From Candidatus Niyogibacteria bacterium (GTDB taxonomy: Bacteria > Patescibacteriota > Minisyncoccia > HO2-45-28): 64,000 nt of DNA. The stretch lies in contig CP066691.1 in NCBI GenBank assembly GCA_016432485.1, positions 77,466 through 141,465 of the forward strand. Reading direction: 5' to 3'. A program made the translations under genes and the position numbers. Below the pieces are notes generated by a model. It was not told the DNA's origin. It did no database searches and saw only the letters and a list, made by a program, of their open reading frames with translations. Positions 47,833 through 51,081 of this stretch are shown here, piece by piece (within the stretch, counting starts at the first letter, position 1; every line of letters begins with the position of its first letter).

Positions 47833-48140
47833 CCGATTTAAGGCTCTATGGGCGATACCTTATCCGCCAATGAGGCGGAAACGACCTTGCTAACAGCTAA
47901 AAGCTATAAGCTAAAAGCTGTGTTAGCTAAGTAAATAATCCACGACCAGCTTCCGCTAGCCGTGCCTTGTTACGACTTAGTCCCTGTCACCGAGCTCACC
48001 TTAGCCGAGCACCACTTTTACAACTATTGTTCTTACAAAAGAACGAGTTATGCAGTGCTACTTGGCGCTTATATTACAAGCGCTTTTCGCAAAAGTGGTG
48101 CTCGGTTTCGGGTGTTCCCGGCTTCCTTGACTTGACGGGC

Positions 48141-49122
48141 GGTATTATGGTCTAATATCTTTTCAAATATTTAGCCATGCACCACTGGGCAAGCAGTTTT
48201 CCTGCACCCTAGCGGTTTTCGTAGGTTCGGGCTTTTTTGCCTCGAGCCCTGATTTCTTCGCGTATTTTGATAATTTTCTTAAATCCTTTGTCCGTTAAAT
48301 GCTCTTTCTGTTTTACTTTCAAAACAATTGTTTTGAATCTTTTGTAGACCTCCGCCTTTTTTGCCTGTAAAGGACATTTATCAAGAAACGGAAAAAGAAA
48401 TTCTGTTAAATCCTTGTTGTTTGTAATTTTATATTTTACATGCGGATACCATCCATACCTTTCGTATGAAAGATCATAAATTCGTCCGCACCCAATTGTG
48501 ATTAAGATTCGTTCCAATATTTCTCTGTCATCGGCCCGAACTTCTATTTCAAACTCCGGCCTTATTTCAAGGCCGCGTTTAAGAGTTTTGTGTCTGCCAA
48601 TGCTTACTGAAAACGATCCCTCACCGTCAATAAAACCCGCAACATAGTTAGGATCAAGTTTTTTCCTACGAATTCGTTCCTTCCCAAACGGCGCTTTTAA
48701 TAAGCAGTTTTTGTGGTCGTCATTTTCAGACGACTTTCGTTTGGTACTACGAACTTTGCTGACTTCTTGCGTTGTTTTTGGACGATTGCTCGTTTTCATA
48801 CCTCGAGGTTATTATACCACGAGGACAACGCAAGATCTCCCACGGTAACCCATATATCTGTGTGTATCTATCTCGATGCCACTACACGCGTTATGCATTT
48901 TTTGCGGCGGGATTCTTCCTGTACTCGAGGAATCTCCCGCATAACGCGCCACAAACTGGCATTCAAGCTAAATACTGCTAATTTCACCCTTCGCCACGGC
49001 TCCTCGCGGAGACGGGCTGTGATTTTGCTTCGTTTCTACCGCAAAGAAACGGCTGGACTTCCGAGCGCATAAAACGTTATGTGCTTCGGTCACCAGCTAG
49101 ATACACGGATCGCATGGCGACC
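48141..49122 (-). mobile_element. ~1 kb intron in 16S (E. coli position ~1390-1400) encoding a LAGLIDADG homing endonuclease; probable group I intron
   Basis: The conserved GTACAC|ACCGCCCGTC block is split by ~980 nt containing a sense-strand ORF. Confidence 0.75.
48209..48799 (-). CDS. LAGLIDADG homing endonuclease (intron-encoded)
   Basis: YVAGFIDGEGSF motif. Same strand as the rRNA. Confidence 0.8.
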   Translation of the reverse strand: MKTSNRPKTTQEVSKVRSTKRKSSENDDHKNCLLKAPFGKERIRRKKLDPNYVAGFIDGEGSFSVSIGRHKTLKRGLEIRPEFEIEVRADDREILERILITIGCGRIYDLSYERYGWYPHVKYKITNNKDLTEFLFPFLDKCPLQAKKAEVYKRFKTIVLKVKQKEHLTDKGFKKIIKIREEIRARGKKARTYENR

Positions 49123-49813
49123 CGAGTACAAGACTCGAGAACGTATTCACCGCGGCGTTCTGATCCGCGATTACTAGCGATTCCGGCTTCACGAGGTCAG
49201 GTTGCAGACCTCGATCCGAATTGGGGCCGGCTTTGATGGGATTAGCTCCGCCTTACGGCTTGGCGACCCTTTGAACCGGCCATTGTAGCACGTGTGTAGC
49301 CCAGGGCATCAGAGGGCCATGCTGACTTGGCGTCATCCCCACCTTCCTCCCCGCCCTCTAAGCTCTACTTTAAATCCTCTTTACAAACTTATTGTGTTGA
49401 AGATTTACAACGACCGACGCGGTCATTGTTAAAGCATAGAGGGCGGGGCAGTTTCGCCTGACATATATAACAGGCAATGGGGGTTGCGCTCGTTACCCCA
49501 CTGAAGGGAACAACTCAAGCCACGAGCTGACGACAGCCATGCAGCGCCTGTCCAGCCGTCCTTGTGAGAAAACCTGCCTTTCGGCAAATTGTCGTCTGGA
49601 TTTCAAGCCCTGGTGAGGTTCTTCGCTTACCATCGAATTAAACCACATGCTCCACCGCTTGTGCGAGTCCCCGTCTATTCCTTTGAGTTTTAGCCTTGCG
49701 GCCGTACTCCCCAGGCGGGAGGCTTAACGCGTTAGCTTCGACACTCAAAGGGTCGATACTTCGAATATCTAGCCTCCATCGTTTAGGGCGCGGAGTACAA
49801 GGGTATCTACATC

Positions 49814-50200
49814 ATTGTTACTTAAACCGAACTTATTAATCATCGGTTAAGGAGCGAACATTTCTGCCGCTCTCTCCGTGTTACCACGAAGATCGGACTA
49901 TATCATCCCGCCAACATCTATAAAGTTGTGGCGGGCTCGGCGTATAGTCTCTACGGGGTTACTGGAAACTTATACTTGTATTTAGGCAATATATATTTTT
50001 TAACTGCAAACCACAATTTTTTAATTATCGTATATTTGCCATAAACACACGTATAAGTTTCCAGAACTTCCCTCGGTATTTTCCGTTTTTTAAAAACGGA
50101 TTTCTACCGATATAGCCGAGTTTGCATTCCATTGTCGCCAATGGAAGGGACTAGCAGCCAACTTTAATTATATCAATAAAGTTGGATACCCATGCCAATC
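49814..50200 (-). mobile_element. ~390-nt ORF-less intervening sequence in 16S (E. coli position ~790-800); probable intron
   Basis: GGGTATCTAATCC…CGCTTTCG is interrupted. No ORF longer than 60 aa on the rRNA strand. Confidence 0.55.
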
Positions 50201-51081
50201 CTTTTCCATACCCGCGCTTTCGTGTTTCAGAGTCAGGAACGCGCCAGTAGACTGCCTTCGCCTTTGGTGTTCCCCTGGATATCAATGGATTTCACTCCTA
50301 CACCCAGAGTTCCGTCTACCTCTCGCGTCCTCCGAGTTCAATGGTATCCCCTGCATTTTCGCCGTTGGGCGGCGATATTTAACAAAAGACTCATTAAACC
50401 TCCTACACACCCTTTACGCCCAGTAAATCCGGATAACGCTTGGGCTCCTCGTATTACCGCGGCTGCTGGCACGAGGTTAGCAAGCCCTTATTCATGGGAT
50501 ACTGTCACTTGCGTTCATCTCCCATAAAAGCAGTTTACGTCCCGAAGGATTTCTTCCTGCACGCGGCGTCGCTCGATCAGGCTTTCGCCCATTGTCGAAT
50601 ATTCTCGACTGCTGCCACCCGTAGGTGTATGGCCCGTGTCGCAGTGCCATTGGTGGGGGGCGAGCTCTCACTCCCCCTAGCCGTCATAGCCTTGGTAGGC
50701 TTTTACCCTGCCAACAAGCTGATAGCCCGCAGACCTTTCCCAGAGCGTCTTACGACTTTACCCTCACGGGAACTATCGGGAATTAGCCCCGCTTTCGCGG
50801 GGTTATGCCCGTCTCTGGGGTAAGTATCTACGTATTACTACCCCGTCTGCCACTCGCCAACGCTTCGCGTTGGAAGCACGAAATCCTAAATCCGAAATAC
50901 GAAACAAACTCAAAATTACAATACTCAAATTCCAAATGTTTTTAGTTTAGAATTTCGAGTTTGGATATTGTTTCGGATTTCGATATTCGAATTTCGAATT
51001 TCCAGTGCGAAGCACTGGCTCGTACGACTTGCATGCCTTATCCACGCCGCCAGCGTTCATCCTGAGCCAGGATCAAACTCT

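Follow-up and report, generated by a model that had tools for sequence, protein, structure and literature searches.

A stand-alone 16S rRNA gene of Candidatus Niyogibacteria with predicted group II and group I introns and three helix-tip insertions

The locus described here is, taken as a whole, very probably a stand-alone 16S rRNA transcription unit of Candidatus Niyogibacteria (Parcubacteria/CPR). The proteins encoded in the window match those of a Candidatus Niyogibacteria MAG exactly. The gene (47928..51088, minus strand of the 64-kb window, i.e. of the whole stretch of DNA analysed) is a complete bacterial 16S rRNA gene, which comprises 3154-3161 nt including introns and insertions when its 5′ end is placed at 51081, where AGAGUUUGAUC begins, or at 51088. 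It harbors two introns and three insertions at helix tips (h6/V1, h40 and h44). Judged from sequence and covariation, the larger insertion of 980 nt (48144..49123), which bears a LAGLIDADG gene, is a compact group II (IIC-like) intron, and the ORF-less insertion of 388 nt (49810..50197) is a predicted group I intron. The layout is real, yet all of its traits have already been published for CPR bacteria (Tsurumaki et al. 2022 and 2024; Liu et al. 2026; Salman et al. 2012). All features given below lie on the minus strand.

Extent and surroundings of the 16S rRNA gene

The Rfam model SSU_rRNA_bacteria (RF00177) matches 51088..49012 with 1206.6 bits over model positions 1-1390. The 3′ part of this first full alignment is wrong, the 3′ domain being displaced by about 1 kb; rescanning 47850-48200 alone assigned model positions 1388-1533 to 48144..47928 with 76.4 bits. 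In the exons the 530, 790, 1400 and h45 regions are all intact. Rfam matches to LSU or 5S rRNA are absent from the entire 64-kb window. A preliminary description had placed a 16S gene of ~3.15 kb at 47928-51081, with two intervening sequences, one LAGLIDADG-encoding and one ORF-less, and with no adjacent 23S. The coordinates were exactly reproduced, both intervening sequences are present (a 196-aa ORF in one, an RF00028 match in the other) and the missing LSU and 5S matches agree with the isolated position of the gene.

A candidate rRNA promoter of the sigma-70 type (TTGACA-16-TATAAT, 12/12; 51415..51442) precedes the 16S 5′ end by about 330 nt and is recognized by consensus match only; over the whole region, promoter-like sites are no more frequent than in shuffled sequence. 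The leader segment GUUUUAUUUUGUCCCGUUC (51147..51165) and the trailer segment GAACGGGACAAAAUAAAGC (47780..47798) pair in RNAduplex to a 19-bp stem with one G.U pair, and BLAST recovered the same pair (22 nt, 95%). This stem encloses the 16S gene alone and appears to resemble the stems at which RNase III processes rRNA in other bacteria. The precursor would probably be transcribed from the promoter near 51440 and be enclosed by the leader/trailer stem.

In the 3′ tail of the 16S gene, GGAUUAUUUACUUA (47928..47941 in the RF00177 alignment), the anti-Shine-Dalgarno motif CCUCC is missing and UUUAC is found in its place. A tail without CCUCC is common to the 16S genes of most relatives and characterizes about half of the Parcubacteria (Tsurumaki et al. 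2022, RNA, PMC9297842); the window gene is alike to this anti-SD-less subgroup, and nothing about it is new here. Added relative to that study is the observation that anti-SD loss correlates with the U1396 exon allele.

A 16S gene of 3.15 kb with five insertions is unusual, and its origin from a MAG permits mis-assembly in principle, as would be required if the locus were an assembly chimera or else a non-functional gene copy. We consider this extremely improbable, given that the exons yield a full-length match of 1206 bits with all four regions named above intact, that the processing stem is still present around the gene and that the locus sits on an 837-kb contig. Moreover, the same intron occupies the same site in 39 species-level genomes, and the independent MAG assembly L001 holds the same group II intron with 98.5% identity.

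The LAGLIDADG-bearing insertion

The 980-nt intron is inserted between C1397 and A1398, the upstream exon ending with C49124. The exact junction is given by 120 intron-less alleles, 101 of which read GUAC-TC-ACCG and 19 GUAC-AC-ACCG, with AT never occurring. The intron starts with GGGUCG and ends with CCAUAAU. Its 5′ end does not match GUGYG (GGGUCG here, GGGUG in some relatives), which fits the family-specific 5′ linker described for the rns-1396 introns. At the 3′ end the AY boundary is present, with AU in 31 of 32 sequences and a preceding residue that is not conserved. The DNA insertion point lies one nucleotide 3′ of the published rns-1396 junction (A1396|C1397, Liu table).

The last seven nucleotides of the upstream exon, UGUACUC (49124..49130), form IBS1 and pair with EBS1, GAGUACA at 48926-48920. 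In 29 sequences this interaction is 99.5% paired, with a single compensatory change, that of L016, and it co-varies between families, with GA/UC found here and GU/AC in published members. Domain I (48840..49117) was delineated by covariation (helices 2-14), with 90-100% of the cells paired and compensatory changes in most pairs; its basal stem is formed by CCAUG (49117-49113) and CGUGG (48844-48840), and EBS1, as (C)GAGUACA at 48927-48920, is located in a terminal loop. Domain II, J2/3 and domain III (48676..48839) were defined by covariation (helices 15-20) and RF01998, domain II extending over ~48839-48757, J2/3 corresponding to the AGAAGUCAGCAAAG region and domain III to 48754-48676. At a near-invariant position adjacent to J2/3, a G-to-A change is found in both the window intron and that of L001. 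Taken together, domains I-III contain 125 pairs in 20 helices that are 93.2% paired, with 807 double-change cells vs 245 ± 15 in shuffles, and slid registers are at most 46% paired.

Domain V, CCGCUAGGGUGCAGGAAAACUGCUUGCCCAGUGG (34 nt, 48182..48215), shows 14 pairs that are 100% paired in 32 sequences, six of them with compensatory changes. Here 53 double-change cells are found vs 13.9 ± 4.9 in shuffles, and slid registers are 28-50% paired. It contains the invariant CGC...GUG triad with its G.U pair and a two-nucleotide UU bulge on the 3′ strand, and deviates in that one more A is bulged and the loop has 5 nt. A CGC-type domain V is typical of IIC introns; the domain I fold presumably resembles that of the O. 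iheyensis IIC intron. Domain VI, derived from folding and comparison, is a hairpin (48147..48178) with the bulged A48151 at position -8 from the 3′ splice site, followed by AAU (48146-48144). About 18 of the 32 relatives share the bulged A at -8, and the rest show an internal loop. With the Rfam family RF01998 (group-II-D1D4-1) the window intron obtains 23.6 bits, which is less than the gathering threshold of 35, whereas 17 of 20 relatives obtain 37-59 bits at the corresponding place; the domain V/VI model RF00029 has no match in the window intron or its relatives.

The check proposed in the preliminary description, a cmsearch with bacterial SSU and group I models, implied that this insertion would be a group I intron as well. 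LAGLIDADG genes are indeed typical of group I introns, and a bona fide one interrupts the same 16S gene. However, a search of 47700-49700 with RF00028 gave no match even at E<=1, and the intron terminates with AU instead of G, with no conserved residue before it. The 34-nt domain V, the bulged A of domain VI and the EBS1-IBS1 pairing equally speak against a group I intron, as do the matches of the relatives to a group II Rfam family and the literature, which calls this site group II-like. A group I identity of the 980-nt intron, lacking an RF00028 match and having domains V/VI and EBS1-IBS1, is effectively refuted and scarcely conceivable. The cmsearch succeeded for the SSU gene and for the ORF-less insertion and failed for the LAGLIDADG-bearing one; if the latter is a group II intron, as predicted, group I models would miss it.

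The putative group II intron encodes a homing endonuclease of 196 aa (48209..48799; GenBank QQG46344.1) with a single LAGLIDADG_1 domain (PF00961, 76.8 bits vs a cut-off of 23.1) and without a reverse transcriptase. The ORF takes the place of domain IV, between domains III and V, with ends that reach into domains II-III and V, the start codon being located within domain II and the stop codon (48211-48209) within the 5′ strand of domain V. The motif VAGFIDGEGSF, encoded at 48643-48617, has kept the acidic catalytic residue, and dN/dS values of 0.05-0.2 reveal purifying selection, which supports a working protein. The gene is intact, as had been claimed in the preliminary description, and retains the GFIDGEGSF motif. 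The nearest relatives of solved structure are I-LtrI, I-OnuI and I-SmaMI (E ~1e-33), and the endonuclease aligns to both halves of I-LtrI/I-OnuI. A homology search with the endonuclease, also proposed earlier, yielded 39 relatives in species-level genomes, all 39 residing at the same site in 16S genes of Patescibacteria, which bears out the suggested CPR-type architecture; among 620 homologous protein clusters every named one is CPR. In view of its single-domain architecture and the precedents of I-ShaI and I-CreI, the most likely mode of action is cleavage of intron-less 16S rDNA at this site by a homodimer of the protein, through which the intron would spread by DNA-level homing. The protein may help splicing too.

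At the CPR 16S site '16IS9' (~1400), group II-like insertions with LAGLIDADG_1 and without reverse transcriptase have been reported (Tsurumaki et al. 2024, J Bacteriol, PMC11270868). The window intron shares with them the phylum-level group, the 16S site, the Pfam family of a single-domain endonuclease, the lack of a reverse transcriptase and a detection that relies on the Rfam group II D1-D4 model. The survey classified by Rfam match only, and the window copy with its 23.6 bits would miss the threshold, whereas for the window intron domains, splice junction and EBS1 are resolved. I-ShaI, a biochemically tested endonuclease, comes from a 23S group I intron and not from 16IS9.

The rns-1396 IIC-LHE family of Thiomargarita (Salman et al. 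2012; Liu et al. 2026, PMC13190283) possesses a 5′ linker, lacks EBS2 and carries a single-motif LHE in domain IV. The window intron is alike in its 16S site (1396-1398), in the single-motif LHE in domain IV, in its non-canonical extra 5′ nucleotides, in its CGC-type domain V and in having EBS1 and IBS1, with EBS2 not reported. The published members show an exon junction ...UGUACA|CACCGC and an EBS1 ...GUGUAC..., in contrast to UGUACUC|ACCGCC and GAGUACA in the window, and the table of PMC13190283 contains no UGUACUC allele. The Thiomargarita intron was compared through its published description. Group IIB1 introns of fungal mitochondrial rRNA genes (Toor & Zimmerly 2002; Li et al. 2011; Mullineux et al. 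2010; PMC4424553) likewise combine a group II ribozyme with a LAGLIDADG gene in an rRNA host gene, have extra 5′-terminal nucleotides before the conserved motif and have lost EBS2, and it is to the fungal I-OnuI/I-LtrI clade that the window endonuclease is most closely related. The fungal introns, however, often encode double-motif proteins and frequently miss the branch-point A, whereas the window intron is IIC-like and single-motif with a bulged A at -8.

The ORF-less insertion and the removal of both introns

The 388-nt insertion is located between U788 and U789 in the 790 loop of h24. RF00028 matches 50189..49874 with 54.5 bits over model positions 1-253, only just above the gathering threshold of 50, and no ORF of >=50 aa is found inside the insertion. 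The R element GUAGAGACUAUACG is found at 49954-49941 and the S element GAUAUAGUCC at 49904-49895. The borders were read from the sequence as exon ...GGAU|UGGCAUGG...AUGAUG|UAGAUACCC exon, such that the 5′ exon ends with U and the intron with omega-G; the boundary is ambiguous by 1 nt (repeated U) and was settled by assuming omega-G. Among 76 related 16S genes examined, only that of L025 has an insertion at 788/789 besides the window, and it displays a homologous core with the same termini. For P1 two candidates are conserved in L025, few comparative sequences being available: GGGUAUCC, for which pairing with AUCC gives a U-A instead of the usual U.G pair at the splice site, and the partner GUCC, which provides the U.G pair but forms only 4 bp and lies ~45 nt downstream. 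The insertion, by its sequence features a group I intron, resembles those of other bacterial rRNA genes (RF00028; Thiomargarita 16S, Thermotoga and Coxiella 23S) in its full-length model match, its U...G termini, its ORF-less form and its site in a conserved functional loop, and differs from them in the rarely used 788/789 site and the ambiguous P1/IGS pairing.

The E. coli numbering of both intron sites is anchored on the primers 785F and 1392R, whose positions we take as given. In this numbering the preliminary sites of ~790-800 and ~1390-1400 are sharpened to U788|U789 and C1397|A1398, and their assignment to functional regions stands, as both introns interrupt universally conserved segments, one in the 790 loop of h24, the other in the decoding-centre strand at 1395-1400.

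The ribozyme signatures on both insertions fit their removal by splicing, and we infer splicing, its lariat or hydrolytic route, endonuclease activity and the fate of the hairpins discussed below from the sequence. Removal of both ribozyme introns and ligation of the exons would rebuild two universally conserved, essential strands. The group I intron would splice by guanosine-initiated two-step transesterification. In the group II intron, the EBS1 loop GAGUACA would hold the upstream exon end UGUACUC and domain V with its CGC triad would form the catalytic centre; the 5′ splice site would be attacked either by the bulged A48151 of domain VI (lariat) or by water (hydrolytic route), upon which the exons would be joined as ...CUUGUACUC|ACCGCCCGUCA...

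Alternatively, one or both large insertions might be cut out by host nucleases without ligation, in the manner of RNase III-excised intervening sequences, leaving a fragmented functional 16S rRNA. Fragmented rRNAs resulting from the removal of intervening sequences are known in reduced-genome bacteria (PMC11270868), and the marginal score and ambiguous P1 of the group I intron as well as the non-canonical 5′ end of the group II intron would be compatible with such a fate. Both sites, however, are in single-stranded conserved strands (the 790 loop and 1395-1400) and not at helix tips, where intervening sequences sit. Furthermore, more than 30 lineages have preserved the ribozyme cores together with the catalytic triad, EBS1 and the branch A, with hundreds of compensatory changes, which would be difficult to understand if the ribozyme did not work. 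Excision without ligation is for these reasons very unlikely, and splicing of both introns is the preferred reading.

Hairpin insertions at helix tips and implications

The V1 and h44 expansions mentioned in the preliminary description are both real (145 and 76 nt), but the list was incomplete since an h40 insertion of 90 nt had been missed. The h6 (V1) insertion (50865..51009), an insert in h6 of RF00177, folds into a long hairpin (MFE -46.3 kcal/mol, z -6.5), the arms of which are 7-nt tandem repeats, UUCGAAA x4.6 and GAUUUCG x3.7. In the h40 loop, the insertion (49354..49443; at RF00177 model positions 1156-1161) is a branched hairpin with an MFE of -50.9 kcal/mol (z -9.3). The tip of h44 is extended by 76 nt compared to the bacterial model RF00177 (48017..48092; z -7.1), and the distal ~100 nt of this helix fold as one long branched hairpin; the h44 landmark distance is 154 nt in the window, whereas 130 of 144 related 16S genes have 60-80 nt.

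Each of these hairpins, situated at solvent-exposed helix ends, would either be tolerated as an expansion segment or be cut out. The chances are about even that they are excised, sporadically exchanged cassettes akin to intervening sequences, rather than retained expansion segments. Long stems close all three, and their folding exceeds that of shuffled sequences by a wide margin (z -6.5 to -9.3). No alignment could be obtained between the distal h44 segments of the window and L001, despite the 98.5% identical intron and 92.6% identical neighbouring genes. Among 60 other h40 regions none contains an equivalent of the h40 insertion, but both of its arms (19/19 and 24/27 nt) are found again in L050, an unrelated metagenomic 16S gene, where they form the arms of an h44 insertion. 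In addition, a passage of PMC11270868 citing Brown 2015 reports CPR 16S insertions to be 'removed from their transcripts'. On the other hand, the tips of h6, h40 and h44 lie at the surface, where extensions could be accommodated as in the case of the eukaryotic expansion segments, and arms made of 7-nt tandem repeats suggest growth in place by slippage. RNase III-excised intervening sequences (23S helices 25/45 of Salmonella, Leptospira and Coxiella, among others) are likewise helix-tip hairpins with long closing stems, and like them the h6, h40 and h44 insertions are patchy among relatives; the classic cases are mostly in 23S rRNA, whereas the window hairpins, candidates for such excision, are in 16S rRNA.

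A second pair of hairpins shared across helices consists of the h44 insertion of L014 and the h40 insertion of L125 (28/30 nt). Both cases of sharing, together with the unalignable distal h44, support a more general but rather doubtful proposal, namely that CPR 16S helix-tip insertions are hairpin cassettes exchangeable between helices and genomes and not slowly grown expansion segments. To our knowledge, one cassette in two different helices of two genomes has not been described. If true, rRNA expansion in CPR bacteria would proceed by transplanting ready-made hairpins, and for h44, which starts at a distance of 20 nt from the intron site, the process could be aided by co-conversion in the course of endonuclease-driven homing. 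Such sharing would bear on the origin of rRNA expansion segments.

That CPR bacteria break single rRNA genes with self-splicing introns and hairpins has been described before, and the present locus is a well-resolved example. It adds the anatomy of a putative CPR group IIC-LAGLIDADG intron at base resolution, comprising the exact junction, covarying domains I-III and V, the branch-point A that has been kept and an ORF running from domain II into domain V. Intron-split genes of this kind are truncated by standard 16S annotation. The predicted junctions GGAU|UAGAUACCC and UGUACUC|ACCGCCC make splicing directly testable in metatranscriptomes. Represented by at least 39 species-level genomes and by 620 protein clusters, this intron family has a far wider distribution in CPR bacteria than is stated in the main text of the 2026 survey, which names Thiotrichaceae only.

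Extent and setting of the 16S rRNA gene

The 16S rRNA gene extends from 51081/51088 to 47928, as proposed in the preliminary description, and is located on the minus strand. The Rfam bacterial SSU model yields a minus-strand match from 51088 with 1206.6 bits, in which the last ~140 model positions are forced onto 49100-49012, where the alignment is visibly poor. A rescan of 47850-48200 by itself places model positions 1388-1533 at 48144..47928 (76.4 bits) and thereby defines the 3′ end of the gene. This segment comprises ACCGCCCGUCA, a long h44, GUCGUAACAAGG and then an intact h45 with its GGAA loop.

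By exact protein matching the sequence was assigned to a Candidatus Niyogibacteria (Parcubacteria, CPR) metagenome-assembled genome with a contig of 836,981 bp. Neither LSU nor 5S rRNA was matched anywhere in the 64-kb window by the Rfam scan, in agreement with the proposed absence of an adjacent 23S rRNA gene; rRNA genes are unlinked in such bacteria. A 19-bp stem, inferred from the pairing of leader 51165-51147 with trailer 47798-47780 (minus strand), encloses the 16S rRNA only, as expected of a stand-alone unit. The candidate promoter TTGACA-16-TATAAT (51442-51415, minus strand), recognized by its perfect consensus match only, overlaps with the upstream ORF at its end. An 805-aa protein, to which NCBI gives the name type IV secretion system DNA-binding domain protein, is encoded about 1 kb ahead of the 16S gene (52063-54480, minus strand). 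The tRNAs typical of rrn spacers, tRNA-Ile(GAU) and tRNA-Ala(UGC), are found 3.2 kb (44674-44748, plus strand) and 8.3 kb (39571-39641, minus strand) past the 16S 3′ end, thus on opposite strands and with protein genes in between.

At the 3′ tail of the 16S rRNA (47928-47941, minus strand) GGAUUAUUUACUUA stands in place of GGAUCACCUCCUUA, by which the anti-Shine-Dalgarno CCUCC is replaced. The loss is also seen in most relatives and is known from about half of Parcubacteria (PMC9297842). GGAG is present at -20 to -4 in only 9 of the 46 window genes. When an alternative Shine-Dalgarno sequence complementary to the new 3′ tail was sought, the upstream regions were found to be AT-rich, with TAAA in 25/46, as judged against a crude background.

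Helix-tip insertions

Three helix tips of the 16S rRNA are extended relative to the SSU model. The V1 and h44 expansions noted in the preliminary description are both present, with 145 nt at h6/V1 (51009-50865, minus strand) and 76 extra nt at the h44 tip (48092-48017, minus strand, from the SSU model rescan), while a 90-nt insertion in the h40 loop (49443-49354, minus strand) had been missed. All three are closed hairpins, far stabler than shuffled sequences (z of -6.5, -9.3 and -7.1 for h6, h40 and h44), and no further copies of them occur elsewhere in the window. The arms of the h6 insertion consist of 7-nt tandem repeats (UUCGAAA x4.6 and GAUUUCG x3.7), and a UUUUAGC x4.4 tandem repeat is located in the 16S trailer at 47889-47919; these repeats suggest growth by slippage.

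The arms of the h40 insertion (CCCCGCCCUCUAUGCUUUA ... UAGAGCUUAGAGGGCGGGG) recur in the h44 insertion of L050, an unrelated metagenomic 16S gene (positions 1419-1471), with 19/19 and 24/27 nt in common. As the arms are complementary to each other, this weighs as one match of ~20 nt together with a shared bulge pattern. The arms are absent beyond these two genes among about 160 loci, and the 60 other h40 regions contain no counterpart. A second cross-helix pair is formed by the h44 of L014 and the h40 of L125, two further 16S loci, which have 28/30 nt in common and are built of AAAGUUCAU repeats. Chance is an unlikely source of the match between h40 and L050, and these few cases suggest that the hairpins may be transplantable cassettes. 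Three matches of the h40 arm to viral contigs were discarded, since they all represent a single phage coding sequence that shares a 17-mer by chance and lacks the 3′ arm. Compared with L001, an independent metagenome-assembled genome (MAG), the distal ~100 nt of h44 (48005-48105, minus strand) cannot be aligned and only length and hairpin shape are retained, while identity is 99% over the 3′ end of the 16S gene and its trailer.

A group I and a group II intron

Both intervening sequences of the preliminary description are present, one ORF-less and one bearing a LAGLIDADG gene; the former is a group I intron according to RF00028, and the latter is identified from its sequence as a group II and not a group I intron.

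The ORF-less group I intron (388 nt, 50197-49810, minus strand) follows U788 of the 16S rRNA. RF00028 matches over its full length at 50189-49874 with 54.5 bits (gathering score 50), and the core elements R (GUAGAGACUAUACG) and S (GAUAUAGUCC) are found. The exon ends with ...GGAU and the intron with ...AUGAUG, followed by UAGAUACCC, in keeping with the U...G rule. Two conserved candidate guide sequences exist for P1, only one of which provides the usual U.G pair. Of the 76 related 16S genes in which both landmarks are present, only L025, from Sungiibacteriota, has an insertion at 788/789; core motifs and termini are common to both introns. This 797-nt insertion (L025:2118-2914) contains a homologous group I core and ~340 nt of extra 5′ sequence; the core is missed by Rfam at gathering. 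In the window, a second copy of UGUACUC, the exon-end heptamer (IBS1) of the group II intron, is located in the 3′ strand of h24 (49793-49799, minus strand), 10 nt 3′ of the group I 3′ splice site, and is probably coincidental.

The LAGLIDADG-bearing insertion (980 nt, 49123-48144, minus strand) follows C1397. Insertions of this kind at position ~1400 of 16S rRNA from CPR bacteria ('16IS9') have been classed as group II-like (Tsurumaki et al. 2024, PMC11270868), and bacterial 'rns-1396' IIC introns have a 5′ linker, lack EBS2 and contain in domain IV the gene of a single-motif LAGLIDADG homing endonuclease, LHE (Liu et al. 2026, PMC13190283). Following these leads, group II identity was tested on the sequences themselves. 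Domain V is a 34-nt hairpin at 48215-48182 with an invariant CGC...GUG, a G.U pair and a 2-nt bulge. None of its 14 pairs is broken in 32 sequences and six show compensatory changes; double-change cells number 53 (shuffles: 13.9 ± 4.9), while slid registers are only 28-50% paired. In domain VI (48178-48147), A48151 is bulged at a distance of 8 nt to the 3′ splice site, and the intron ends with AU. In domains I-III, which occupy the 5′ ~400 nt, 20 helices with 125 pairs are 93.2% paired, compensatory changes are found in 93 pairs, and 807 double-change cells compare with 245 ± 15, slid registers being at most 46% paired. EBS1 is represented by a conserved loop, GAGUACA (48926-48920), with which the exon end UGUACUC can pair. 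In the related locus L016 the exon UGCACUC pairs with GAGUGCA, and in published family members ...GUACAC is combined with ...GUGUAC (PMC13190283); since complementarity is kept in each case, EBS1 tracks the exon. With RF01998 (group-II-D1D4-1), 17/20 relatives score 37-59 bits at the homologous location and the window intron 23.6 bits; a near-invariant position is changed from G to A in both the window and L001. RF00029 (domains V/VI) gave no match, even for a 181-nt slice at permissive thresholds.

Two other readings were considered. An archaeal bulge-helix-bulge intron was raised because archaeal rRNA introns carry LAGLIDADG genes, and was dropped when the group II domains were found. A P1-like hairpin between exon CUCGAG and intron CUCGGG is unsupported in the related loci L010 and L033.

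The DNA insertion point is unambiguous, since 120 intron-less alleles with the same flanks, obtained in a metagenome scan, read TC (101) or AC (19) at the two variable positions and never AT. The predicted intron-less target is ...GGTGAATACGTTCTCGAGTCTTGTACTCACCGCCCGTCAAGTCAAGG..., C49124 is the last nucleotide of the upstream exon (...CUUGUACUC), the intron runs from G49123 to U48144 and the downstream exon begins with A48143 (ACCGCCC...). We take this junction to be C1397|A1398, numbering from the 1392R primer position. It is one nucleotide 3′ of that tabulated for rns-1396 (PMC13190283). Two earlier readings are overturned by this junction: ...GUAC|AUACCGCC, in which the conserved AU was exon, and an 8-nt linker, GGGUCGCC, preceding a displaced (A/G)UGCG that would correspond to GUGYG, modelled on fungal introns and C.te.I1. 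The linker is also rejected because CCAUG forms, with covariation, the 5′ side of the domain I basal stem (helix 2), which leaves only GGGU(C)G ahead of domain I. The intron begins with GGGUCG, deviating from GUGYG; altered 5′ ends are known for group II introns of rRNA genes that carry an LHE (PMC4424553).

The window exon carries U1396 (UGUACUC, 49124-49125, minus strand) instead of the usual A. Among the 120 intron-less alleles CCUCC is missing in 92/96 of the TC type and kept in 10/15 of the AC type, hence this decoding-centre substitution tracks the loss of the anti-Shine-Dalgarno sequence.

Endonuclease, family and proposed mobility

The endonuclease gene is intact, as had been assumed: the 196-aa ORF (48799-48209, minus strand, GenBank QQG46344.1) encodes a single LAGLIDADG_1 domain (76.8 bits), which is maintained by selection, as deduced from dN/dS values of 0.05-0.2 in comparisons with unsaturated dS. 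The ORF has a single start codon, within domain II; from there the frame crosses J2/3 as well as domain III and terminates within the 5′ strand of domain V, so that ~45 N-terminal codons are at the same time part of the ribozyme core. The closest solved relatives are the fungal mitochondrial enzymes I-LtrI, I-OnuI, I-SmaMI and I-CpaMI (E 1e-33 to 1e-30), to both halves of which the single domain aligns. Among the single-domain matches are 5gkk and 3e54, the latter an enzyme of an archaeal rRNA intron. Biochemical assays have been reported for I-ShaI, which belongs to a 23S group I intron.

The IIC-LHE family at this 16S site was reportedly described also by Salman in 2012. In a scan with one genome per species, 39 LHE relatives (51-97% identity) were found, all in Patescibacteria MAGs and all between GGTGAATACGTTC...CTTGTAC and ACCGCCCGTCA; this common 16S site bears out the CPR-type rRNA architecture proposed initially. 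In the published main text the rns-1396 family is confined to four Thiotrichaceae genera, and Table S4 nevertheless has CPR entries (PMC13190283); here, 39 species-level CPR genomes and 620 homologous protein clusters contain the family's LHE. Among the best 120 of these 620 matches, the names given are from CPR only, with no Thiotrichaceae name. The same CPR-type 16S gene with group II intron is present in L029 (CAZKQS010000118.1), deposited as a Thermoplasmatales archaeon MAG; this contig is probably mis-binned.

In the most likely route of maturation, trimming of the precursor would take place at the leader/trailer stem, the group I intron would splice via the guanosine pathway and the IIC intron by A48151 branching or hydrolysis, with EBS1 as guide. 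Exon ligation would rebuild the 790 loop as well as the decoding strand, with the predicted junctions GGAAAAGGAU|UAGAUACCCUUGUACUCC and CGAGUCUUGUACUC|ACCGCCCGUCAAGUC. The sequences establish the anatomy, the conserved structure, the junction and the selection on the ORF. From these we infer catalysis, ligation and cleavage, supported by the statement that transcripts lack the CPR rRNA insertions (Brown 2015, cited by PMC11270868).

CPR rRNA insertions and their intron classes have been described before (PMC11270868). Intron classes, IIC-LHE family and anti-Shine-Dalgarno loss being known already, the locus is a well-resolved case. Between the window and L001 the group II intron is 98.5% identical compared with 92.6% for the neighbouring downstream genes, which would fit either exchange or strong constraint. 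An LHE homodimer would cut intron-less alleles, and the intron would thus spread by recombination.
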